DNA of 64,000 nucleotides from NCBI GenBank assembly GCA_016935525.1, contig JAFGQU010000004.1:1314-65313 (forward strand), read 5' to 3'. The position numbers and the translations under genes were made by a program. Source of the DNA: Candidatus Omnitrophota bacterium (lineage in GTDB: Bacteria > Omnitrophota > Gorgyraeia > Duberdicusellales > 4484-171). Shown piece by piece: positions 1,935 to 59,186 of this stretch (position 1 is the first letter of the stretch; each line of letters opens with the position of its first letter). The notes beneath the pieces were generated by a model. It was not told the DNA's origin. It worked only from the letters and a program-made list of their open reading frames with translations, and made no database searches.

Positions 1935-4217
1935 TCAACCGGACAACTTCACCGTACGTAATCGAAGAGCGTTACCGATCACCGAAACCGAACTGAAACT
2001 CATCGCGGCACCGGCAATCATCGGATTCAACAATAATCCTAAAAAAGGATAGAGTATACCGGCCGCGACCGGGATACCCAGCGCGTTATAGATAAACGCA
2101 AAAAACAGGTTCTGACGGATATTACGCATCACCGCCCGGCTTAAAGTTAACGCGTTCACGATACCGGTTAAATCGCCTTTTACCAAAGTAATCCCGGCGC
2201 TTTCGATAGCGACATCCGTTCCGGTCCCCATCGCCACGCCGACTTCAGCTTCGGCTAACGCCGGCGCGTCGTTGATCCCGTCGCCGGCGGCCATAACGAA
2301 CGCGCCTTCTCGTTTCAACTTTTTCACGATATCCTGTTTATCTTTCGGTTCAAGACCCGCATAGACTTCAGTGATACCTAATTCTTCAGCGATCGCCCGG
2401 GCAGTTTTTTGATTATCACCGGTCACCATGACGATCTTGAGTCCCATCTTATGTAACGCATCAATCGCACCCGGTGTCGTTTCTTTTATAGGGTCAGCGA
2501 CACTAAGTATCCCGGCTATCCGCTCTGCGACCGCGACCCAGATAACCGTTTCGGCTTTCTCCTGAAGCTGGACGGCTTTCTTTTTCAGTTCTTCGGGCAG
2601 ACCTATTCCGGAGCTTTCAATGAATTTTTGTTTCCCCAGAAAGACAGCCTTGCCGTTCAGCGCACCTTTCACTCCACCGCCGGTTACGGACTGAAAATCA
2701 TCAATCGGGTCTAATTCGGCCCCTTTCTCTTTCGCATGTGCAACAACGGCGCGCGCGAGGGGATGTTCACTGCTTTGTTCAAGAGAAGCCGCAACATTCA
2801 ACAATGCCGGTTCAATCCACCCGTCGGCGGTAATCACCGTCTTTACGTGCGGTTTCCCGGCAGTCAACGTGCCGGTCTTATCGGTAAGGAGATGGGTAAC
2901 TTTTTCGCACTTCTCGATCGCTTCGGCATTTTTGATCAATATTCCCGATTGCGCGCCGCGGCCGACACCGACCATGACCGATATCGGTGTTGCCAATCCT
3001 AACGCGCAGGGACAGGCAATGATCAGGACCGAAATCGCGCTGACCAACGCGTACGCTAAAGCCGGCCGGGGACCAAATACAAACCATACGATAAAGGCGA
3101 CAACAGCACAGGCCAGTACCGCGGGAACAAAATAACCGGAAACCTTATCGGCAAGGGTTTGAATCGGAGCGCGGCTGCGTTGCGCCTGGGCTACCATATC
3201 CACGATCTGGGAAAGTAATGTTTCCGACCCGACCTTTTCGGTACGCATGACGAACGTGCCGGTCTGGTTCACGGTCGCGCCGATGACCCGGTCACCTTCC
3301 TTTTTAGTCACCGGAAGAGGTTCGCCGGAGATCATCGATTCATCGACCGTGCTTTTTCCTTCAATAATGATACCATCTAAAGGAACTTTTTCGCCGGGAC
3401 GTACCCGCAACATATCGCCTTTTTGTACCTCTTCGATAGCGACCTCTTCTTCTTTACCGTCACTAATACGATGCGCACCTTTGGCGGCAAGGCCGAGTAA
3501 CGCTTTGATCGCTTGTCCCGTCCGCGTACGGGCCCGCGCCTCCAGAAGCTGGCCGAGAAGTACCAATACGGTAATAACTGTCGCAGCTTCAAAATAGAGG
3601 CCGATCTCGCCGGCCTGCTTCAATGACGCAGGGAAAATACCGGGAAACAATACCGCCAGAGCGCTGAACCCGTATGCCGCGCCCACACCCATCGCGATCA
3701 AAGTGAACATATTCGGGCTTTTATGTAAGATCGAACGCCAAGCTTTTACAAAAAAAATGCTGCCGGACCAGAACACGACCGGAGTCGCCAGAATAAACTG
3801 GACCCAACGGGAAAATCCGGAAGGGATAACTGTTCGTAGATCAAAGCCCGGGATCATCTCGCCCAGAGCAAGGATGAAAACAGGTAATGTTAAGGTCAGT
3901 CCGATCCAGAATCTATGAAATAATGACCGTGTTTCCCGGTTATCGTTTTCGTCTGCGCCGGCGACGTTTTTTAGTTCAAGATGCATACCGCATTTCGGAC
4001 AATCGCCGGGAGTATCCTGTTCGATCTCAGGATGCATCGGACAGGTATAAATACCGGTATCGACCCTATCGCCGGACGGACGGCTCTTATGTAAGAACTT
4101 GTCCTGACATTTTTGACTGCAGAAAAAATAGGTTTTACCGTCTTTTTCTGATCTCAACGAATTCTGCTCATTTACCGCCATACCACAAATAGGGTCTTTA
4201 GTCATATTTTTCACCAC
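1935..4217 (-). CDS. copA: Copper(I)-translocating P1B-type ATPase with N-terminal TRASH/YHS-like and CPMHPE metal-binding motifs.
   Basis: Motifs found: [24 protein letters not shown], the transmembrane CPC motif ([13 protein letters not shown]), DKTGTLT, TGDN and GDGINDAP. Confidence 0.9.
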
Positions 4218-4259
4218 CTATTTTATATTATTTACTGATCGACAAGCAGGATCTCTCGG

Positions 4260-4742
4260 TCACTGGACAATATCCCGAGTGATATCGCCGCTGGGTTTTA
4301 TCTGGCTGACTTCTTTTATCCTGATCTTTAAAATACTCACGGTTTTAAGCGAAATAAGTTCATCCACAAGACTGCGCGTGCTTTTCCTCACTCCCTGGAT
4401 GACTCGTTCGGTAGCTAATCTGACCTGTTTACTGTTCATCTCACCAGAAAGCTGCCGGAACACGTCGCCTTTATCGATCACCTCGGCCCTACCGTACAAT
4501 TGATAGCCGATGACTTTATTCATATCGACCGCCGATAAAGAGATCTTCGGGTTACGTTTTATGTTTTTATAGGTCCGGCCCACGACGAAATCGACCAGAT
4601 AAATATAGTTGTCCTCTATCTTTAACAAGGGTTTGGCGGACGTATGCGGCCGGCCGCGTTTATCGGAAGTACCGATAAACAGAAATACCTGGCGCCGCAA
4701 AAAATCCATGATCTCTTTTGTAAATAATTTTCTGTCTATCAC
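4260..4742 (-). CDS. Pyridoxamine 5'-phosphate oxidase-like FMN-binding protein.
   Basis: FIGTSDKRGRPHTSAKP and YQLYGRAEV fit the PNPOx split-barrel pattern. The start overlaps the stop of the upstream radical SAM gene (ATGA), indicating translational coupling. Confidence 0.5.
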   Translation of the reverse strand: MIDRKLFTKEIMDFLRRQVFLFIGTSDKRGRPHTSAKPLLKIEDNYIYLVDFVVGRTYKNIKRNPKISLSAVDMNKVIGYQLYGRAEVIDKGDVFRQLSGEMNSKQVRLATERVIQGVRKSTRSLVDELISLKTVSILKIRIKEVSQIKPSGDITRDIVQ

Positions 4743-6421
4743 GGCCTATTCTTCCTTACATGGGTTTGCGCTTCTTTCAGTTGATCAAGAAACGTGCTTT
4801 TCTTAAATTTCTGGGTCCACCCTTTCATCACTATCCAGCCTCCGAAACGGGCCAGACTGTTCCGCCACGGCCGGTACCATTGTCTCCATCCTGATTTGAT
4901 GTTATGCAGAAAAAAGATCATCGCGGGGAACGTGAACACGTGGATACCGATCATAAACATGTATTTTAACTGGTAAAACCGGCCCATGATCTTATGCATC
5001 GCGACCTGTAATTCCTGGGCCGAAAGCGGCGCGTCGGGTTCAAATATCGGAAAATTACCGTCATAATATTCCCATCCGATATCGGCAAGCGGATAGACCC
5101 GGTTCTGATGTTGAAGGCGGTCCCGTAATTGAGTACCCGGTAACGGGACCGGTAATAATACCTGTATCGTATCGATCTTCGCTTTTTTGATAAACGTCCT
5201 GTACCGTTTGATCCGTTCGTTAAGAGATATTTTTGGGGCCGACGCCTCTTTGAACGGGTAGCCGAAAATAAACATCCCGTGTACCAGAAACCCGAACCGG
5301 TGATAGACCCGCGCAAGTTCTATCATGTCTTCAGGCCGTAACCGTTTATTCATCGCTTTTAATTCTTCTTCGATCGGCGATTCAAAACCGATGGCTACCG
5401 TATTGATACCGGCGGAACGCATAGCTTTAAGTAATTCAGGATCTTTCGCGTTATCCAACCGTATTTGGACCGTCACATCTAACCGTTTACGTGTACGCAA
5501 CTGATAATCCCGTAACATATGACAAAACCGTATAGTCTCATCCCTGTACTGGCCGAATAAGTCGTCTATAATAAAAAAATGCCGGGCATCATAAGTTTCT
5601 AAAAGGACTTTGATCTGTTCAAGCAACCGTTCCGAAGAAGCGCATCGAGGTTTACCTTTGACGGCACAGAACTCGCAATCCATCCCGCACCCGCGGATTT
5701 TCCCGATCGGATACATTTTGATCCGGGCATACCGGACCAGTGAAAAATCAGGGATCGGTAACGCGTCGAAATCGGTGATCGGCTCGCGCGGGGCGGTGAC
5801 CATGACCTGATGCTCTTTCAAATACGCGATACCCGGGATCTGGCTGATCTCTTTCGTACCGGTAAAACTTTTAAGCAGTTCTTTTATCGTCTCCTCTCCT
5901 TCACCGATCACCACATAATCTATACCCGATTCTAACGCTTCCCGGATATTGTCGCCGGCAAAATGCTGTCCTCCGGCGATAGTAATGACCCCTCTTTCTT
6001 TATAAAACCGCGCTACATCATAAAGCCGGGGGATCGTACTGGTAAGCCCGCCGTAGAACCCGACTACATCCGCGGGACGCTCCTGCTGTAAATACTCGTG
6101 GTTTGCGCCGCGTGAACCTCTTGGCCCATACCCGCGAAGATTGTTTTCGTCAATTACCTCGACATCCCAATTTTCCATCTTGTTGACGGTAGTGGCGATA
6201 CATACCGGGCCGAGCGCGGTCGTCTTATCGGCAATATTCGAATAGATGTTAAACGCCGGATATACGGGATTTATGAGCCTGAATCGGTGTCTTTTTTTTG
6301 TTATATCAAACATAATTATAAAAGTGAATCTCCTCGGACTAAAAGCCCGAGGCTTCTTCACGTTCCGCCAAACTCCGTTCGGCGGGACATCCGCCTGAGG
6401 CGGATAATTTCTCGCATTCAT
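4739..6421 (-). CDS. B12-binding-domain radical SAM protein with a hydrophobic C-terminal extension.
   Basis: N-terminal Rossmann-like B12-binding region (VVGFYGGLTSTIPRLYDVARFYKERGVITIAGGQH). The radical SAM motif is CGMDCEFC (CxxxCxxC). Confidence 0.75.
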   Translation of the reverse strand: MNARNYPPQADVPPNGVWRNVKKPRAFSPRRFTFIIMFDITKKRHRFRLINPVYPAFNIYSNIADKTTALGPVCIATTVNKMENWDVEVIDENNLRGYGPRGSRGANHEYLQQERPADVVGFYGGLTSTIPRLYDVARFYKERGVITIAGGQHFAGDNIREALESGIDYVVIGEGEETIKELLKSFTGTKEISQIPGIAYLKEHQVMVTAPREPITDFDALPIPDFSLVRYARIKMYPIGKIRGCGMDCEFCAVKGKPRCASSERLLEQIKVLLETYDARHFFIIDDLFGQYRDETIRFCHMLRDYQLRTRKRLDVTVQIRLDNAKDPELLKAMRSAGINTVAIGFESPIEEELKAMNKRLRPEDMIELARVYHRFGFLVHGMFIFGYPFKEASAPKISLNERIKRYRTFIKKAKIDTIQVLLPVPLPGTQLRDRLQHQNRVYPLADIGWEYYDGNFPIFEPDAPLSAQELQVAMHKIMGRFYQLKYMFMIGIHVFTFPAMIFFLHNIKSGWRQWYRPWRNSLARFGGWIVMKGWTQKFKKSTFLDQLKEAQTHVRKNRP

Positions 6422-6503: not shown

Positions 6504-7577
6504 TCAAGGGGACAATTGAGAAGGATGAGCAGGAATGATTTCTTTCATGGTATCCATCCAGGAAGGATCGTCATGGCGGACCTTCCGGTAATACCAATAT
6601 TCCACCCCCCAGAGAAAAACGGTGTCGAACCCCACCGACGCCATTTCTTTAAACACCGAAGTATAGCTCTGAAGGGGGCACATCAATTCTTCTTCATCCG
6701 CGTGGACAAGCTTGCCGGGTTCCCAGGGTTCCGCCTGGAGTTCGGTGACCCAGGCCTCTTTCTGCTGTCCGTGCACTTTTTGTACAAGAGAACGTATATA
6801 GAAAACCAGCTGTTCCATCCGTGTCTTAAAACAGAATCTCATACCGCCCCATTTATGCCCTATCACCGGATAGATATTAAAAGCGGGTATATCCGCTATT
6901 CCTACCGTTTCCCGTATCGGGTCGCGCCGGTAGATCAACCGGAAAAGAAGACGTAAGAATGTATTAGAGGTAGCCAGCACATTCACCACGACCGGCCGGT
7001 TTTCAGGATCGAGTCGTCTCACCAGCGCGATCTCTTCTTGAAGGAAATCTCTTCCGATCCGCCAGCCGAAAGGGCCGGAATGATTGAAGGGTTCGTTCTC
7101 TATCTGCCAGGCGTATACCGCTTCATGTTCACGATAACGGCCGACTACTTTACGGATAAACTTCAGCACTGCCGCGCGCACTTCTTCATGTTGAGTTATA
7201 TCGGCGCCGCGGCGCATCCTGATCTTTACTTTCAGCCAGTCCGGCAGATAATACTCGGGCCAACGCGGCGACTTCATCCCTACCGTCAGGAGCACTTTTA
7301 TTTTCTTTTGGGCCGCGATATCCAATTGCCAATCAAGTTCGGAAAAATCGTATTCCCCTTCTTCTCTTTCTATCCGCGACCAGTAGGCACCGAGGCGTAA
7401 GAACTCGAAATCCATGCCGGTGATCTCTTCATACGTCTCTTTCCAATCGATACCGAGATAATCGCATTGCTGCTGACTGAATGTAGTTCCCAGGCGCGGT
7501 TCGGCGGCAGGACATAAACCGATGGCCACACTGTGCAATAGGATAACTGCGGACAAAATGAAGAGTCTCATAGGCAT
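6504..7577 (-). CDS. Secreted glycoside hydrolase, GH5-like (beta-glycanase).
   Basis: Signal peptide MPMRLFILSAVILLHSVAIG. WQIENEP matches the GH5 acid/base NEP motif. WVTELQ is a candidate nucleophile-Glu strand. Confidence 0.6.
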   Translation of the reverse strand: MPMRLFILSAVILLHSVAIGLCPAAEPRLGTTFSQQQCDYLGIDWKETYEEITGMDFEFLRLGAYWSRIEREEGEYDFSELDWQLDIAAQKKIKVLLTVGMKSPRWPEYYLPDWLKVKIRMRRGADITQHEEVRAAVLKFIRKVVGRYREHEAVYAWQIENEPFNHSGPFGWRIGRDFLQEEIALVRRLDPENRPVVVNVLATSNTFLRLLFRLIYRRDPIRETVGIADIPAFNIYPVIGHKWGGMRFCFKTRMEQLVFYIRSLVQKVHGQQKEAWVTELQAEPWEPGKLVHADEEELMCPLQSYTSVFKEMASVGFDTVFLWGVEYWYYRKVRHDDPSWMDTMKEIIPAHPSQLSP

Positions 7578-11358: not shown

Positions 11359-11787
11359 TTAAACCGTTTTAATCCATCCCTCGATTGTTTCCTTGATTTT
11401 ATCTCTTACGATCCTGGTTTTCGCTAATTTTTCCTGGGGTGAACCCTGAAAACTCGAGGGATCGGCGAATCCCCAGTGAAGCATCCGGAGCGTATTAGGA
11501 AAAATCGGGCATTTCTGCGACTGCGATTCATCACATACGGTGATGACGTAATGGTACCGTTTACCCTGTTTGTAGAAATCGAACGCGCTTTTGGTCTTAT
11601 TCCCGGAAATATCGATGCCGATCTCTTTCATGACCTCGACCGCTACCGGGTTCAACCTACCCGGTTCAAGGCCGGCGCTTTCGACTTCAAACCGGTCGCC
11701 GGCAAGCTGTTTTAAAAAAGCCTCCGCCATCTGGCTGCGGGCCGAATTATGCACACAGACAAATAAAACCTTCAATTTATCACTCAT
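11359..11787 (-). CDS. arsC: Arsenate reductase of the LMW-PTP/thioredoxin-coupled family.
   Basis: [15 protein letters not shown] contains the CX5R P-loop. Downstream cysteines are in the expected context. Confidence 0.85.
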
Positions 11788-11805
11788 AAGATCTCCTCCT
11801 TCTTT

Positions 11806-12015
11806 TTATTTAATGTACAATTCGGTAAGGATAAACATTAATAACGCTATAATAGATAATATTCCAACAACCAGATATCCTTGAACCAGATTATCTTTAA
11901 TTGGACACTCGCATTCTTTATTGTCACATTTTCTGGATTTCCACATAAAATACCTGTAAATGCCCAAGAAAAAAAGAACAGATACGACGGATTGAATCAA
12001 TATTTTAATATTCAT
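11806..12015 (-). CDS. Small two-TM membrane protein with an inter-helix Cys cluster (CDNKECECP), sitting in the ars operon.
   Basis: Internal start MNIKIL is preceded by GGAGG 8 nt upstream. The longer track start at 12036 is less likely. The Cys-rich loop lies between two hydrophobic helices. Confidence 0.35.
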
Positions 12016-12157
12016 GGTTCTGACCTCCGCTAACATGGTTACCTGTACTCGAGATAAAAAGACAACAAGGTCCCGACTTGCCTCGTTCAGGAGAAGACAG
12101 CAATGCAGACACTAACAACCCCGCCACAACAAGGATGTATTTAAACCACATTTTCAT
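12005..12157 (-). CDS. Small (50 aa) secreted or membrane peptide with a signal-peptide-like N-terminus and a CC motif. Below the ORF-track size cut-off.
   Basis: Translation is [50 protein letters not shown]. It lies between ACR3 and the small membrane protein and overlaps the latter out of frame. RBS is weak. Confidence 0.2.
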   Translation of the reverse strand: MKMWFKYILVVAGLLVSALLSSPERGKSGPCCLFISSTGNHVSGGQNHEY

Positions 12158-12179
12158 GTTTAAACCCCGTTAGAGAATT

Positions 12180-13364
12180 TCATCTTCGAGCGTTGGTCTT
12201 CTCTAACGGGGTAAACCAATATTGTGTATTAAGACAGAATTTAACAAGCATCAACATTACCGGAACCTCAATGAGAACCCCAACTACGGTCGCCAGAGCC
12301 GCTCCGGATGACAGGCCGAATAACATTGTCGCGGTAGCGATAGCAACTTCAAAATGGTTGCTTGCCCCGATCATGGCCGACGGCGCCGCGTCTTCATAAC
12401 TCAATTTTATTTTTTTCGCCAGCCAGTACGTAATCGCGAATATTAAACAAGTCTGTATAAAAAGCGGTATCGCGATCCACAATATCGTCAACGGTTGAGA
12501 AAGGATAATCTCACCTTTAAACGAAAATAAAAGGACAAGCGTTACCAATAACGCTGTTATTGAGACCGGCGCGAGAACGTGCAGGAACTTCTCGTTAAAC
12601 CATTCAATCCCTTTAGAACCGATGATCCATTTTCTTGAAAAATAACCGGCGATAAGCGGCAGCGCGACATAAATCGCGATAGACAGCAACAACGCCTGCC
12701 AGGGAACCGGCATACGCCCGATTCCAAGAAGAAAGCCTCCCAGGACACCGTACAGCAAAAGCATTGTCAAAGAATTGATCGCGACCATGACCAGAGTATG
12801 TCCGTCATTTCCTTTGGATAAATATCCCCACACCAGCACCATCGCCGTGCACGGCGCGATACCAAGCAAAATACACCCGGCAAAATAACTTCGCCATAAC
12901 GGGACCTGTAGCATTTTCATCCCTTCATGAAAAACTACTCTTCCTGAGCCGTGAATAGAGCCCAGGACCCAATCCGCGCCGGGAGGAAGTTTCACGAAAT
13001 CTACCGCTTCCGGTCCGATCAGGCCTTTAAACAATACCCCCAAAAACAAAAACGCGATACCGTACATGGTAAACGGCTTTATCGCCCAGTTCACAAATAA
13101 AGTCAACCCGACCGGCTTCGGGGATTTTCCCGCTTTGATGACTTCCGCGAAATCAATTTTTACCATAATGGGATACATCATAAAAAACAGACATACTGCG
13201 ATCGGAATGGAAACCACCGGAGCGCCGCTCACATTTATGGCAAAGCTATCAAGCGCCTTAGCAACACCGGGTGCCATTTTCCCCAGCAGTATTCCGGCAC
13301 CGATGCAGGCAATCACCCATACGGTCAGATATTTCTCAAAAAACCCTAAACTTCTTTCAGCCAT
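12180..13364 (-). CDS. acr3: Arsenite efflux permease of the ACR3 family.
   Basis: [10 protein letters not shown]-terminal signature. Ten-TM profile and the correct length. Confidence 0.85.
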
Positions 13365-13661
13365 TTACTTCTCCTTAAATTTACAACAACCGCCTTCAAT
13401 CTTTATTGCCTTAATATTCACTAACGCGTCGGCTATTTTTTTATGCGCTGATTCTAATATACGGGATATGGTTGAACGATGAACTTTCATCTTCTTTGCC
13501 ACTTGCATTTGAGTTAAACCTTCAAGATGAGAAAGCCGTATCGCTTCAAATTCGTCTATTGTCATATACACACCATCTAATTTATTCAAAGGTTTACACT
13601 GGGGACGAAAACACCTCTCTCCCGGCTCGCATTTCACCCATCGTGTTTTTTTCGGCCTCAT
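13365..13661 (-). CDS. DUF134/UPF0251 predicted DNA-binding protein with an N-terminal Cys motif. It occupies the regulator position of the ars operon.
   Basis: MRPKKTRWVKCEPGERCFRPQCKP..LTQMQVAKKMKVHRSTISRIL shows the sigma-70 region-4-like HTH typical of DUF134. Its stop abuts the ACR3 start. Confidence 0.6.
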   Translation of the reverse strand: MRPKKTRWVKCEPGERCFRPQCKPLNKLDGVYMTIDEFEAIRLSHLEGLTQMQVAKKMKVHRSTISRILESAHKKIADALVNIKAIKIEGGCCKFKEK

Positions 13662-13787
13662 CGGTCACCTCCTATAATGCACATATGTGCATTATAGTTT
13701 AATACCCGCGCCCGGGACCGTCAATAGAAAATCCTCATTATTTTTTTCGGCCAAAGAAAGATCAATGAATAAATTTTGGGCAGGATT

Positions 13788-14423
13788 TTAATAGGTACGC
13801 TTAAACTGAATCATGTAGCTGTGCCCCAGATCAGTGATGCCGGTCTTTTCAAAGCCATACTCTTTCATAGCTTTTTCGACTTCTTGAGGCGGCACGCGTA
13901 TCTCAAGGGGCGGGCCGAACCCGGTTTCTTCTTTTTTAAACTCGATAATCGCAAGCTTACCCCCGGGTTTAATGATCCGGACGAGCTCATTTAACAGGGT
14001 ACCTGTATCTCCGGATAAATCTAATCCGTGAAGGACCTGGGCGATAAAACATACATCGATACTTTTATCCTCAAACGGCAAGGAAGAAGATATATCCGAC
14101 GTTATCCCTTTTACATTATGCAATTTCGCAGTGTGAGCCTTGCCGGTTACGATCGCAATCACTTCTTCCCACTGATCGAGAGCATATACCGTGCCGGAAG
14201 GGCCGACGATCTTTGCCGCTTCCAGTGAATAATCGCCCGCGCCACACCCCAGATCAAGAAAAGAACATCCTTCTTTAAGAGCAAGCGCAGCAAAAACACG
14301 TTCAGTATCGTACCGATTGAAACTGCTTATCCCCTGTTTCTGCCGTTCGATACCGCCGTGGTCGTGTTCGTGGCGAAGCCTGTTTTTATCTTTCATAGCA
14401 TCATCCCCCTCAGGTAACCGCAC
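13788..14423 (-). CDS. Class I SAM-dependent methyltransferase (type 11) with a His-rich N-terminus. First gene of the ars operon.
   Basis: Motif I is LDLGCGAGDY. The N-terminus carries HEHDHGG. Not a canonical ArsM in length or Cys pattern. Confidence 0.6.
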   Translation of the reverse strand: MRLPEGDDAMKDKNRLRHEHDHGGIERQKQGISSFNRYDTERVFAALALKEGCSFLDLGCGAGDYSLEAAKIVGPSGTVYALDQWEEVIAIVTGKAHTAKLHNVKGITSDISSSLPFEDKSIDVCFIAQVLHGLDLSGDTGTLLNELVRIIKPGGKLAIIEFKKEETGFGPPLEIRVPPQEVEKAMKEYGFEKTGITDLGHSYMIQFKRTY

Positions 14424-15177
14424 CTGGCAACCTACGCGGTTGCCAGGTAATTACTCATCATCAACATCAAAAATAAGACTTTTTATTTTTGCTAACTCCC
14501 GCTGATAAGAAATCCTGTCTGCAACGAAATCCCGATATATTTTGGGACACATCTGAAATAAATCGCTGTATTCACAAATTTTTTCCGTATCCTTATCAAA
14601 AGCGATATATTCCCTATACGAAGATGGTTCCCATTCACAAAGATTCTCTACAAGACAAGCTGTCGTCGGATTGAGATGGATATACCGGGTTAAATGCAAC
14701 AATTGTTCATCGTTTTCTACTAAAACTTTTTTGAAACGACTTTCCCATAGTGGCCCTTTTCTATTATGTTTTGTATTAAAATAACGCGTATAGCTGTTAA
14801 GAATATTATTCATAAAATTTGATATTCCGTTATCTGCCACTTGTTTCAGTATTAAATGGATATGAGTAGGCATAAAACAATAAGCAATAATCTTTACTAT
14901 TTTTTTGTGAGCATCAAGTATCTCTTTGTTTCTTTCCGTATCATTTGCCGCGCGATTGAACTTGCTAAAACTAATAGCTCTATGCTGATATCTATAATAT
15001 CCTATCATTCTCCTCATACGCAGGTAATCACACTCATTATGGAATATTTCGAATTTTGCAATAGTGCGTGAATATACATGATATATTTGCCCTGTCGTTA
15101 ACATTTCAACTTTGTTCGTACGCATTGATTGTGTCCTCTACTCACCTCTGGCAACCGCGTAGGTTGCCAGAGGTGAG
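14422..15177 (-). mobile_element. IS200-like/REP-associated tyrosine transposase (RAYT) element bounded by inverted REP-like hairpins.
   Basis: Hairpin 14422..14448 is acctggcaacc-tacgc-ggttgccaggt. Hairpin 15141..15177 is ctcacctctggcaacc-gcgta-ggttgccagaggtgag. They are mutual reverse complements and immediately flank the Y1 transposase gene. Confidence 0.65.
14451..15125 (-). CDS. HUH-Y1 transposase of the IS200-like family (RAYT-like, 224 aa).
   Basis: The HuH motif is HIHLIL. The catalytic Tyr region is RYIHLNP. YHVYSR and GPLWESRF are typical of PF01797. Confidence 0.7.
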   Translation of the reverse strand: MRTNKVEMLTTGQIYHVYSRTIAKFEIFHNECDYLRMRRMIGYYRYQHRAISFSKFNRAANDTERNKEILDAHKKIVKIIAYCFMPTHIHLILKQVADNGISNFMNNILNSYTRYFNTKHNRKGPLWESRFKKVLVENDEQLLHLTRYIHLNPTTACLVENLCEWEPSSYREYIAFDKDTEKICEYSDLFQMCPKIYRDFVADRISYQRELAKIKSLIFDVDDE

Positions 15178-15212
15178 TCAAAATATTTTCTCTCGTCTTT
15201 CTTTCTTTTGCA

Positions 15213-15255
15213 ATTAAAAAACCCCGGTTATGTTATATATAACCGGGGTTTATGA
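15213..15255 (-). terminator. Rho-independent terminator downstream of nikM/cbiM.
   Basis: 12-bp stem aaaccccggtta / taaccggggttt with a 9-nt loop, followed on the minus strand by TTTTAATT. Confidence 0.5.
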
Positions 15256-15271
15256 TATATTCCCGTTGTTT

Positions 15272-16171
15272 TTAGTAAGTCTTTACGGTCTCCAAACCGG
15301 TCAGCCCCTTCGCTACGAGCCAGGCAACGAGAAAGGTCAGAGCTACACCGATGAGTCCGGCAAGACCGGTCGCCAGCATCTCATTACTGATTGCCGAAAC
15401 AGTATAATCCGGCAGAGGGCTGACGAATGCCGGAGCAGATTCGTGGAGAAAACTGTATTTTTCCGCGACCCATTCCAGCCCGTCCGGCAGGCCGCTGGCA
15501 AACGGGCTTAACAGAGTTGCAATGATTCCCGATGCAATAAGCGGGACTGTAACCGACCGTCTTTGCGAAACCGCCGTTACTTCGAAACGTAACGCCGCGC
15601 ATACGGCGACAGTGATCAACGCTTCCCCTATACCGATAAAGGCGTGCGTCGAAAGCATCGCGCCGGCAACCTGGAAGAACCCGATCGTTCCGGAAAGAGC
15701 AAGTTCGATACTGCAGACCAGAGCGGCAAGCATCACCGCACACCACGCCGCTATACCTACGCGCGCAACACTGTCTCGATTTCTGTTCAATGCCGCGTAG
15801 ATCAATCCGCCTAACCCGGCGCCGATAATCGCCATGTTAAGGATATTCGCTCCCAGCACCGTAAATCCGCCGTCGGCAAATACCAGGCATTGAATAGTTA
15901 CCACAAGCGCCATCGAGAGTACCCCGAACGGGATTCCCAACAAACTTGAAGCCAGTACTCCTCCCAGCAGATGGCCGCTCGTTCCGCCGTTGATCGGAAA
16001 ATTCATCATCTGACCGGCAAAGATCAACGCGGTAATCGCGGCAAACTTAGCGGACTGCGGTTTCGTTTTTGACCGAAACGCGAAGAACGCGGCCAGACCG
16101 ACTCCCAGAGCGCTGACTACGGCCGTCACCGGACAGATCGTTCCGTTTAACATTTCATTCGGTATATGCAT
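15272..16171 (-). CDS. cbiM: ECF-type Ni/Co transporter substrate component CbiM/NikM, possibly an M-N fusion.
   Basis: The N-terminus MHIPNEML matches the MHIxDG-type CbiM start. About eight TM helices. NikR lies nearby. Confidence 0.7.
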   Translation of the reverse strand: MHIPNEMLNGTICPVTAVVSALGVGLAAFFAFRSKTKPQSAKFAAITALIFAGQMMNFPINGGTSGHLLGGVLASSLLGIPFGVLSMALVVTIQCLVFADGGFTVLGANILNMAIIGAGLGGLIYAALNRNRDSVARVGIAAWCAVMLAALVCSIELALSGTIGFFQVAGAMLSTHAFIGIGEALITVAVCAALRFEVTAVSQRRSVTVPLIASGIIATLLSPFASGLPDGLEWVAEKYSFLHESAPAFVSPLPDYTVSAISNEMLATGLAGLIGVALTFLVAWLVAKGLTGLETVKTY

Positions 16172-16198
16172 ACCCCACCTCCTTTAATTCCACATGGT

Positions 16199-16939
16199 TC
16201 ATAATGCAATAGTTATCCCGTAGGTAACTTGTAAATCGAAATCGGCACGGGACATTCCGGTACCCACGCCAAGGTCCAAAGTTATCGTGTCGGCAATCGC
16301 ATAATTGAATCCGAACAATATCGCGCACACATTATCATTAAACTCTCTTTTTAATACGGTTTCTCCGACAACTTCACCGACAAGATTGAATTTCTCGTTT
16401 AACGCATATTCGAACGCCAATCCATACGTAAAGCCGTCTTCATTATCCTCTTCCTCGAAATCCTTGCGAAACGCGTATCCGATATTGAGATGCGCGGTGA
16501 ACGGTTCAAATGTTTTTGAAAAAACGCACGCGAGCGAATATTCCGGCCTCCCGGCCCCCACTCCTCTTTCATCGTTTCCCGATTCCGACATATACCCAAA
16601 CACCAAAGCACTATCGGGAAAGGACCCTTTCTCTTTTACCAGGTTCCATTTCAGAGACCCGCCCACGTCCGCAAACCCGTCGGAGTCACTCTCTTCTTTC
16701 GCATCGATAAAGATGTAAGGAACCTCCACCGCCGCGTCCAGGGTATCCCCCACGCCGAAGGTCAAAACAAGACCCATCTCGGTTTCATTATCAAATCCCT
16801 TGACATGTTCGATACCATATTCGATCTCAATATTTCCTCTGCCTACCGTCCCGGCATCGTTGACCGATAACGGCCGGGCCGCAAAGACCGTAACAGGAAA
16901 TATAACCGTCCCCACGATTATACTTACCATCTTTTTCAT
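16199..16939 (-). CDS. Small outer-membrane beta-barrel protein with a signal peptide, sitting between nikR and nikM.
   Basis: Signal peptide MKKMVSIIVGTVIFPVTVFA. Alternating amphipathic beta-strand pattern rich in G, Y, F and D. Confidence 0.4.
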   Translation of the reverse strand: MKKMVSIIVGTVIFPVTVFAARPLSVNDAGTVGRGNIEIEYGIEHVKGFDNETEMGLVLTFGVGDTLDAAVEVPYIFIDAKEESDSDGFADVGGSLKWNLVKEKGSFPDSALVFGYMSESGNDERGVGAGRPEYSLACVFSKTFEPFTAHLNIGYAFRKDFEEEDNEDGFTYGLAFEYALNEKFNLVGEVVGETVLKREFNDNVCAILFGFNYAIADTITLDLGVGTGMSRADFDLQVTYGITIAL

Positions 16940-17098
16940 CCTTCCCCTCCTTGTTGTTACCTTTTAATAAATCGTAACACCTAAAATCAAAAAAAATTAG
17001 CTTCCCCTCTGTGCATACAAACACGGCTCTCTCAGTCGAGGAAGCTTCGTTGCAATCAAGTTATTTCGGCCATGCGATAGATGAGAAAGAACTCACAA

Positions 17099-17512
17099 TT
17101 ATTTGCCCGAATATACGCCACTCGCCACCAACTGTCCATGCTTCATCCCTTTTATCCCGATCAGTTTATCGGCCAGTTCTTTTAACTTCCTCGCTTTACC
17201 TTTTAACGCGATGATCTCCAGACAATTATGATGGTCAAGATGGACATGCTGGACCGACAATACCAGTTCCTGATACTGGTGCTGGATATCGATCGATCTG
17301 TTCAGAAGGTCTCGTTTATGATGATCATAGACCAGGACTGCACATCCGGCAACTTCCCGGTTATGTTCCCAGGCTAAAGATACGAGGTTGTTATTGATAA
17401 GAAAACGTATCGCCTGGGACCGGTTGGGGAATTTATGCCCGGAGACGAACGCGTCAAGTTTTTTTAACAGGCCCTCTTCCAGCGATACTCCGAATCTTTT
17501 TACTTTTTTCAT
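17099..17512 (-). CDS. nikR: Nickel-responsive regulator NikR (ribbon-helix-helix plus metal-binding domain).
   Basis: MKKVKRFGVSLEEGLLKKLDAFV..RSQAIRFLI is the RHH signature. The C-domain carries His/Cys residues HHxR..H..H..C. Confidence 0.8.
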   Translation of the reverse strand: MKKVKRFGVSLEEGLLKKLDAFVSGHKFPNRSQAIRFLINNNLVSLAWEHNREVAGCAVLVYDHHKRDLLNRSIDIQHQYQELVLSVQHVHLDHHNCLEIIALKGKARKLKELADKLIGIKGMKHGQLVASGVYSGK

Positions 17513-59122: not shown

Positions 59123-59186
59123 CTCCTTACAAATCCCTCCGTTTCGCTCTTAAGAGCGAAACGGAGGGATTGATTATTCTCTTTTT

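Follow-up and report, generated by a model that had tools for sequence, protein, structure and literature searches.

A RAYT-like HUH/Y1 gene bracketed by two cognate palindromes in a Candidatus Omnitrophota genome

Analysis of a 64,000-nt stretch from a Candidatus Omnitrophota metagenome-assembled genome (MAG; assembly GCA_016935525.1, contig JAFGQU010000004.1, positions 1,314 to 65,313), referred to below in its entirety as the window, focused on a gene for a HUH/Y1 protein that lies between a nickel and an arsenic locus and is bounded by two hairpins. The protein resembles the REP-associated tyrosine transposases (RAYTs; REP, repetitive extragenic palindromic). We consider the locus to be probably REPtron/TIRtron-like, that is, a class-2 TnpA_Y1 (RAYT-like) HUH endonuclease gene that is inherited vertically, in single copy on the chromosome, and bracketed by two cognate palindromes. 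The concepts of REPtron and TIRtron and the Y-x3-NP signature of class 2 are taken from earlier work (PMC6006769, PMC3733652, PMC5581495, PMC8266576). The parts of the locus are as follows.

15140..15178, no strand assigned: 5' (gene-upstream) cognate palindrome with a 17-bp perfect stem, ACTCACCTCTGGCAACC / GGTTGCCAGAGGTGAGT
15126..15139, minus strand: Shine-Dalgarno-like AGAGGA spacer from the upstream hairpin to the ATG at 15125, read from the sequence
14451..15125, minus strand: RAYT-like HUH/Y1 gene, 224 aa
14422..14448, no strand assigned: 3' (gene-downstream) cognate palindrome with an 11-bp perfect stem, ACCTGGCAACC / GGTTGCCAGGT

The protein and its two flanking hairpins

A preliminary description of the window had reported a 224-aa HUH-Y1 protein with the motifs HIHLIL and YIHLNP, and our analysis agrees: the open reading frame (ORF) at 14451..15125 contains PTHIHLIL and RYIHLNP and matches Pfam Y1_Tnp over residues 72–150 (6.5e-10), with the HUH motif at H88-I-H90 and the Y motif at Y148-IHLNP. 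The NCBI annotation begins at M8 (15104), giving a 217-aa protein (MBN2482765.1, an identical protein from a Candidatus Omnitrophota MAG, encoded on a contig of 216 kb). The RAYT-like identity proposed there was borne out as well. The best NCBIfam model is REP_Tyr_transpos (NF047646; 60.3 bits, E = 1.9e-16), and a family profile built from 40 homologues and compared with solved structures places E. coli TnpA_REP (PDB: 4ER8) first (2.6e-6) and ISDra2 TnpA second (3e-3). In the profile alignment to 4ER8, PTHxHL falls on PEHMHC and RYIHLNP on DYIYINP. A Foldseek search with an AlphaFold (AF2) model (pLDDT 81, pTM 0.80) also returns 4ER8 at the top (1.3e-6), with IS200/IS605 TnpAs next, and PDB ranks 1–29 are taken by TnpA_REP, ISDra2, IS608, IS200 and Sulfolobus TnpA chains. 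The modelled structure is that of a RAYT-like HUH/Y1 protein with a predicted TnpA-type alpha/beta fold.

H88, H90 and Y148 show no variation among 40 diverse homologues, an argument that catalysis has been retained. The 40 homologues also conserve a C-terminal extension (W165..SSY..C184..Y197..F200..Q208), the tail of which reads YQRELAKIK; Pfam detects no helix-turn-helix (HTH), Bac_DnaA_C-like or other DNA-binding domain in this tail, Y1_Tnp being the only match. The Y-x3-NP signature defines class 2 of TnpA_Y1, which is RAYT-like and does not belong to insertion sequences (ISs; PMC6006769), and since this is the motif found here, the protein falls in class 2. Among the published signatures, subclass 2.1 (Bertels Group 1, TIRYT) appears to fit best, as judged by motifs only: W127-E, YIHLNP, S168-S169 and the length of 224 aa are matched, and the context of the histidine motif differs, being T-H-x-H here and not N-H-x-H.

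The two bounding hairpins had been described as reverse complements of each other. This is exact for the 23-nt arms at 14424–14446 and 15148–15170, which are fully complementary (100%), with the asymmetric 5-nt loop included. The upstream palindrome ends 14 nt before the ATG, and its loop reads GCGTA on the plus strand and TACGC on the gene strand. The downstream palindrome starts 2 nt past the stop codon, with a loop of TACGC on the plus strand and GCGTA on the gene strand, and a gene-strand fold of 14412–14458 has an extra short interrupted basal helix (GTAAT/GGTTAC) that includes the stop codon TAA. Folding, which had been proposed as a check, gave about −21.5 kcal/mol for the upstream hairpin as single-stranded DNA (ssDNA; −21.8/−21.4 kcal/mol, z −9 to −10) and −13 to −14 kcal/mol for the downstream one (−13.2/−14.2 kcal/mol, z about −5); z ranged from −4.8 to −10 overall and 0 of 200 shuffles folded as well. 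GGCAACC-N5-GGTTGCC with up to two mismatches has exactly two matches in the 64 kb, against 0.18 expected.

The hairpin bracket and its dispersed copies across the family

Matches to the protein fall into more than 2,500 clusters at 90% identity, the named ones nearly all from Omnitrophota, and an exhaustive search yielded 255 clusters at 50% identity with E ≤1e-30 and full-length coverage. The loci compared were those of a 74% identical homologue (L002, GCA_964483625.1), a 58% identical homologue from the same sample as the window (L003), a 57% identical homologue (L004) and 80 metagenome loci. A gene between two hairpins is the layout of all ~80 homologous loci with flanks, which are mostly from Candidatus Omnitrophota; in these relatives one hairpin lies just upstream of the ribosome-binding site and the other just after the stop codon or overlapping it. 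The flanking dyads are real and family-wide: of the 100-nt segments adjoining the gene, 59% of those upstream and 67% of those downstream contain a perfect stem of 8 bp or more, compared with 2% of 612 control segments from the same loci. Loci under the 8-bp threshold carry shorter or slightly imperfect hairpins in the same places.

A loop-centred alignment shows a conserved apex, (C/A)ACC-N5-GGT(G/T), with ACC/GGT present in 83 of 95 hairpins, and a basal (T)AACC / GGTT(A) that is common to many hairpins across the family. The stem between these two motifs varies from genome to genome and stays Watson-Crick. Stem positions 3–9 are Watson-Crick by construction of the search; the unselected positions 10–12 are Watson-Crick in 84, 67 and 64% of cases compared with 27–33% after shuffling. 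G:T pairs account for 0–8% at positions 10–12 and for ~10% further out, and Watson-Crick pairing with so few G:T pairs fits a DNA palindrome or hairpin rather than a structure of RNA only. The two flanking stems of one locus are identical at 8–10 of 10 positions in 26 of the 29 two-flank loci and at 6–7 of 10 in the other three. This pattern is one of co-evolution of enzyme and hairpin together with concerted evolution, as known from REPtrons.

The inverted arrangement of the preliminary description holds in the window and does not extend to the family as a rule, as the loops of the flanking pairs are direct in 15 loci, inverted in 11 and different in 3. Both loops are flipped with respect to the gene in the window and in L002. 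In perfect palindromes, such flips are to be expected as neutral events. Seven loci (L138, L140, L149, L157, L186, L143 and L150) have a bracket of another palindrome type without the CACC/GGTG apex, examples being CCGTTCTCCGATCGGG...CCCGATCGGAGAACGG, ACCAG-TTGCGGGGT-CTGGT and TGCAAGCCC-GAC-GGGCTTGCA; a change of hairpin type has thus taken place among these related proteins.

Dispersed copies were sought in non-redundant related loci with a generic scan for an ACC-N5-GGT apex on a stem of ≥6 bp. Most of the copies detected (108/129) lie within 300 nt of RAYT genes; the other 21 are found farther away in 531 kb, where shuffles predict about 1.6, and 15–16 of them are outside long ORFs. The family has a low-density dispersed population of roughly one copy per 25–35 kb near RAYTs, which is far under classical REP densities and within the range reported for Group 1/TIRtron repeats. 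Some copies form REPIN-like inverted doublets, in L128 (279/310) and beside the RAYT gene in L148, L159, L167, L188 and L192–L194; L188 contains a 36-bp super-stem of three units, and in L173 five dispersed copies lie no more than 3 kb from the gene.

The 58% identical paralogue at L003 (MBN2483988.1), whose neighbours are RadC, a type I restriction-modification system and Fic, is accompanied by three hairpins (5959–5987, 6679–6721 and 6758–6789) with the TGGCAAC stem core of the window. L003 and the window stem from one sample, their protein accessions are 1,223 numbers apart, and its tetranucleotide correlation with the window (0.854) is the best of all non-homologous loci, so that it likely belongs to the same MAG. 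If it does, the hairpin stem is common to paralogous loci despite a protein identity of 58%. In genome contigs, TGGCAACC-N5-GGTTGCCA occurs in at least 119 stretches from unrelated taxa; none of those listed is beside a RAYT homologue, and these are chance palindromes. Shewanella sp. TC10 (NZ_VKHR01000029.1, locus L070) has five such copies spaced ~400–580 bp apart at 2630–4649 with no RAYT homologue of this family nearby, and they are probably a repeat of another kind. The subclass-2.4 REP of Cytophaga hutchinsonii ABG58622.1, GTAG-GGGCAACC-CTTGC-GGTTGCCC, combines a canonical GTAG foot with the GGCAACC-N5-GGTTGCC core of the window's hairpins (PMC6006769 Table S1). The common core was judged coincidental, as its class keeps the foot and varies the apex, the opposite of what is seen here.

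By analogy with TnpA_REP of E. coli, Stenotrophomonas and Marinomonas and with IS608/ISDra2 TnpA (PMC8266576; PMC6006769), the palindromes of a REPtron/TIRtron-like locus would extrude as hairpins in ssDNA, for example in the lagging-strand template, and the enzyme would bind the hairpin apex and loop. Conservation of the apex sequence, and not just of the structure, would suit recognition by a protein. Cleavage would take place nearby via a 5'-phosphotyrosine link at Y148, with a metal held by H88/H90, and the strands would be rejoined. Such activity, with or without gene conversion, could keep the flanking copies alike and occasionally seed a copy elsewhere, and the gene itself would stay put.

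Several observations weigh against this reading. The REP_Tyr_transpos score of 60.3 bits is below the cut-off of that model (80). The canonical 5' GT[AG]G foot is absent; in the window GTAG sits in the loop/apex (GCGTAGG), members with CCWGG and TGACA loop types have no GTAG, and the stem flanks are symmetric (AACC..GGTT). The palindromes are perfect, so that strand specificity could come only from the 5-nt loop, the orientation of which is not fixed. The REP arrays that a search for further hairpin copies was meant to uncover did not materialize within the window, as its other 63 kb contain 0 additional copies by either the GGCAACC core (≤2 mismatches) or the generic scan; no other hairpin family was found in the 64 kb. 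We infer binding and cleavage of ssDNA hairpins from related enzymes only, and an RNA-level role of the upstream hairpin in the presumed mRNA leader is plausible.

It is conceivable, if rather unlikely, that the proteins constitute an undescribed TnpA_Y1 subclass, near-universal in Candidatus Omnitrophota, with palindromes kept essentially at the two borders of the gene and not spread as REPs. The conserved apex, the lack of a GTAG foot, the co-evolving lower stem and the freely flipping loop would then be features of that subclass. The main substrate of the enzyme would in this case be its own bracket, which might serve self-regulation, reversible excision or protection of the locus, and the borders would be recurrent rearrangement breakpoints, as at the nik-RAYT/ars swap described below.

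We regard it as improbable that the hairpins act mainly in RNA or expression, with the leader and 3' stem-loops stabilizing or throttling the RAYT mRNA and with DNA mobility minor or absent. Leader control in IS200 and REP-mediated mRNA stabilization are models for such a role. The 14-nt spacer leaves no room for a promoter, so the upstream hairpin would be inside the transcript leader and, provided the gene is expressed, part of its RNA; a sigma-70-like site was not found in the stretch from this hairpin to the RAYT start. The position of the downstream hairpin at or after the stop codon in most loci and the large share of copies within 300 nt of the gene are also in keeping with a role in RNA. 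Against it stand the stems, which keep to Watson-Crick pairs on either strand and have hardly any G:T pairs, the conservation of apex sequence rather than of structure alone, and the extragenic singletons and inverted doublets that lie kilobases from any RAYT. Moreover, no T-run follows either hairpin in the window, so they are not intrinsic terminators, and the Rfam comparison returned nothing above noise. Mimicry of a Shine-Dalgarno/anti-Shine-Dalgarno pair by the CACC..GGTG apex was rejected because in the window the apex lies 27–31 nt away from the ATG and the hairpin recurs 3' of the stop codon.

Inheritance of the locus and its neighbouring genes

Between 17.5 and 11.3 kb, the minus strand of the window carries one series of co-oriented genes, listed here in the direction of reading with the RAYT gene omitted.

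17512..17099, minus strand: nikR
16939..16199, minus strand: outer-membrane beta-barrel protein (OMP; Phenol_MetA_deg/DUF5777)
16171..15272, minus strand: CbiM+PDGLE fused permease
15219–15251, minus strand: intrinsic terminator of cbiM/PDGLE, separate from the hairpins
14396..13788, minus strand: generic S-adenosylmethionine (SAM) methyltransferase
13661..13365, minus strand: DUF134
13364..12180, minus strand: ACR3
11787..11359, minus strand: ArsC of the low-molecular-weight protein tyrosine phosphatase (LMW-PTP) type

Comparison of the gene series shows that the RAYT gene is vertically inherited and not a recent insertion. L002 has nikR-OMP-cbiM/PDGLE-RAYT in the order and orientation of the window, and identity between the two is 74% for the RAYT, 87, 57 and 81% for its neighbours and 76–86% for the ars genes. 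Because of this synteny and the host-like divergence, the RAYT must have been downstream of cbiM since the window and L002 diverged. Further pairs of loci at 64–89% identity are syntenic on at least one side. Each locus has one RAYT copy, and there is no second copy in the 64 kb. Leaving aside the same contig from other samples, the closest relative is 74% identical and the next ones ≤58%, and near-identical copies in other contexts were not seen among the window, the fetched loci and the homologue matches. Plasmid and phage homologues are only partial matches of ≤40% identity, from collections without Omnitrophota.

The empty-site comparison that had been suggested was made through the neighbouring cbiM/PDGLE gene. 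Two relatives without a RAYT (L207 and L209) were found, with cbiM/PDGLE 72–74% identical to that of the window and a different gene order, and a clean empty site was not found. These loci also bear on the absence of NikQ/NikO from the nik locus, which is correct as an observation and had been tentatively attributed to displacement by the element. NikQ/NikO are missing beside cbiM/PDGLE in L002, where the gene order is the same, and in the RAYT-free L207 and L209 too, and nothing suggests that the RAYT gene displaced them.

The GC content of the RAYT ORF is 0.34 compared with 0.47 for the window. RAYT ORFs are below their flanks in 51 of 52 loci (means 0.32 vs. 0.42), with both syntenic orthologues included. 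Low GC is a stable trait of the family and not a sign of recent transfer; a possible cause is the conserved protein sequence, which is rich in K/N/I/Y/F.

On the downstream side, the flanks of the window and L002 are unlike. In L002 the ars cassette precedes nikR, and in the window it comes after the RAYT and methyltransferase genes. This swap of ars and nikR-OMP-cbiM-RAYT (window 11359–17512 vs. L002 1625–6672) lies inside an otherwise colinear region running from a Na/H-exchanger gene to a B12-radical-SAM gene, and one of its breakpoints falls at the RAYT 3' hairpin, a single case. In L002 the RAYT is followed downstream by ablA/ablB-like genes. Inversion of the gene between its hairpins was rejected, as there are no cross-side flank matches except the ars-cassette swap.

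An autonomous IS200-like IS was considered as an explanation of the same data and is doubtful. The hairpin-to-hairpin segment would be a mobile 757-bp unit that transposed into the junction of nik and ars, with the palindromes as its subterminal left- and right-end hairpins. This segment is compact and near the size of IS200, with hairpins directly abutting the ORF, and direct hairpins as in IS200/IS605 are found in about half of the family. The GC content 13 points under that of the surroundings, the unlike downstream flanks of the window and L002, and some RAYTs of 81–89% identity with unlike near-downstream flanks could also be explained in this way. However, the gene has the same position in L002 with the divergence of the host genes, there is a single copy per locus without near-identical copies elsewhere, the motif is Y-x3-NP and not Y-x3-Q (PMC6006769), and the IS200 model fits poorly (see below). 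Low GC is family-wide and shared by the L002 orthologue, and the L173/L189 pair is syntenic again further downstream. Both this and the following explanation are less likely than the REPtron/TIRtron-like locus. Very improbable, finally, is that the palindromes are duplex operator sites for a dimeric protein binding via its C-terminal extension, the gene being autoregulated, of unrelated function and with DNA processing lost: the perfect two-fold symmetry, the conserved ACC/GGT half-sites about 8–10 nt apart and a conserved C-terminal helix (194–218) with no assigned role would fit, but H-x-H and Tyr are invariant, Pfam finds neither an HTH nor another DNA-binding domain at the C-terminal end, a site 3' of the stop codon is needless for autoregulation and dispersed copies exist.

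The ars operon had been placed within 1 bp of the left hairpin, which is true only for a mechanically assigned GTG start at 14423. The start called is the ATG at 14396, preceded by GAGGGGGA and 25 nt from the hairpin; it is likely the start rather than the GTG, and it opens the methyltransferase gene. ArsM identity of this methyltransferase was rejected, since it matches only the generic class I SAM methyltransferases (UbiE/Methyltransf_31). The ars operon proper (DUF134-ACR3-ArsC) begins at 13661 and has its own promoter and palindrome, TTGAC(A/G)-spacer-(−10) overlapping ATGCACATATGTGCAT, which is kept in both the window (13672–13697) and L002. The suggestion that the element contributes a promoter or structure to ars can be set aside, because ars has this conserved promoter and operator of its own and the methyltransferase gene lies in between. 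The site at 13672–13697 is a perfect 26-nt palindrome (CTATAATGCACATATGTGCATTATAG) over a −10-like box just before DUF134, with TTGACG upstream; its core ATGCACATATGTGC and TTGAC(A/G) are conserved in L002 (about 1466–1515). This site is the probable promoter and operator for DUF134-ACR3-ArsC, and DUF134 is a candidate regulator.

On the other side of the RAYT gene, the nickel/cobalt locus in Omnitrophota is a CbiM+PDGLE fusion (window, L002, L207 and L209), which adjoins the outer-membrane beta-barrel gene in the three nikR-bearing loci (window, L002 and L207). There are no CbiQ/CbiO genes near CbiM+PDGLE in any of the four genomes examined, so the energizing module must be encoded elsewhere or shared. 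The longest hairpin of the window besides the RAYT bracket is an unrelated 18-bp perfect palindrome at 59132–59171 (AATCCCTCCGTTTCGCTCTTAAGAGCGAAACGGAGGGATT). For annotation, these results mean that the gene is not an active IS, the nickel locus is not disrupted and the ars operon is not driven by the gene.

Comparison with known systems

RAYTs are the textbook example of a domesticated bacterial transposase. To our knowledge, almost everything known about RAYTs comes from Proteobacteria. The locus adds a large, strongly conserved RAYT-like family from an uncultured phylum, in which the enzyme is never without its two hairpins and dispersed copies are few, making it a clean natural system for asking whether the pair has any function other than REP proliferation. 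No full-text literature naming both Omnitrophota and "tyrosine transposase" was found, and the REP table of Quentin 2018 (PMC6006769) does not contain the Omnitrophota hairpin motifs.

IS200/IS608 (IS200/IS605 family, TnpA_Y1 subclass 1.1) resembles the locus in fold and catalytic motifs, in a unit of ~0.7 kb with a hairpin near each end and in a leader hairpin beside the ribosome-binding site. The Omnitrophota protein differs by its Y-x3-NP in place of Y-x3-Q and scores 17 bits with the NCBIfam IS200 model (transpos_IS200, NF033573), the cut-off of which is 55. Its gene is single-copy and syntenic between related genomes and has no tnpB, and the hairpins are perfect palindromes of variable relative orientation.

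The E. coli REPtron consists of tnpA_REP (yafM, PDB: 4ER8) flanked by REP/BIME and belongs to TnpA_Y1 subclass 2.2/Bertels Group 2. Like it, the Omnitrophota locus has a HUH motif and single catalytic Tyr that align with 4ER8, a Y-x3-NP motif, a single-copy chromosomal gene bracketed by cognate palindromes, and a hairpin and protein that co-vary between genomes. Identity to E. coli TnpA_REP is only ~14%, and the protein is longer (224 aa compared with 165 aa); it has an insertion following helix A, and its conserved tail extends further. The REPs of E. coli number in the hundreds and combine a bulged, imperfect stem with a 5' GTAG foot, whereas the Omnitrophota hairpins are perfect, conserve the apex, lack a foot tag and have dispersed copies in small numbers at most. 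Their position against the ORF is also tight and constant in comparison with canonical REPtrons.

The TIRtron/TIRYT (Di Nocera 2013, PMC3733652) corresponds to TnpA_Y1 subclass 2.1 (Quentin 2018, PMC6006769) and RAYT Group 1 (Bertels 2017, PMC5581495). Y[IV]HLNP, W-E and the SS tail are shared with proteins of this subclass, which have ~238 aa compared with 224 aa here, and so is a low copy number; the flanking 16-mers of Group 1 have about 12 occurrences per replicon (PMC5581495). The flanking inverted repeats of TIRtrons are likewise partly self-complementary and rarely or moderately amplified. The residue before H-x-H is Thr here and Asn in subclass 2.1, and the C-terminal HTH/Bac_DnaA_C-like domain of subgroup 2.1.2 is not detected by Pfam in the Omnitrophota protein. 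Subclass 2.1 is reported without REP-like hairpins and with terminal inverted repeats (TIRs) containing GGGGWSAS, unlike the true hairpin with the apex (C/A)ACC-N5-GGT(G/T) on each side of the gene described here. The REPtron/TIRtron arrangement is already known, and the Omnitrophota family is an addition to such loci.

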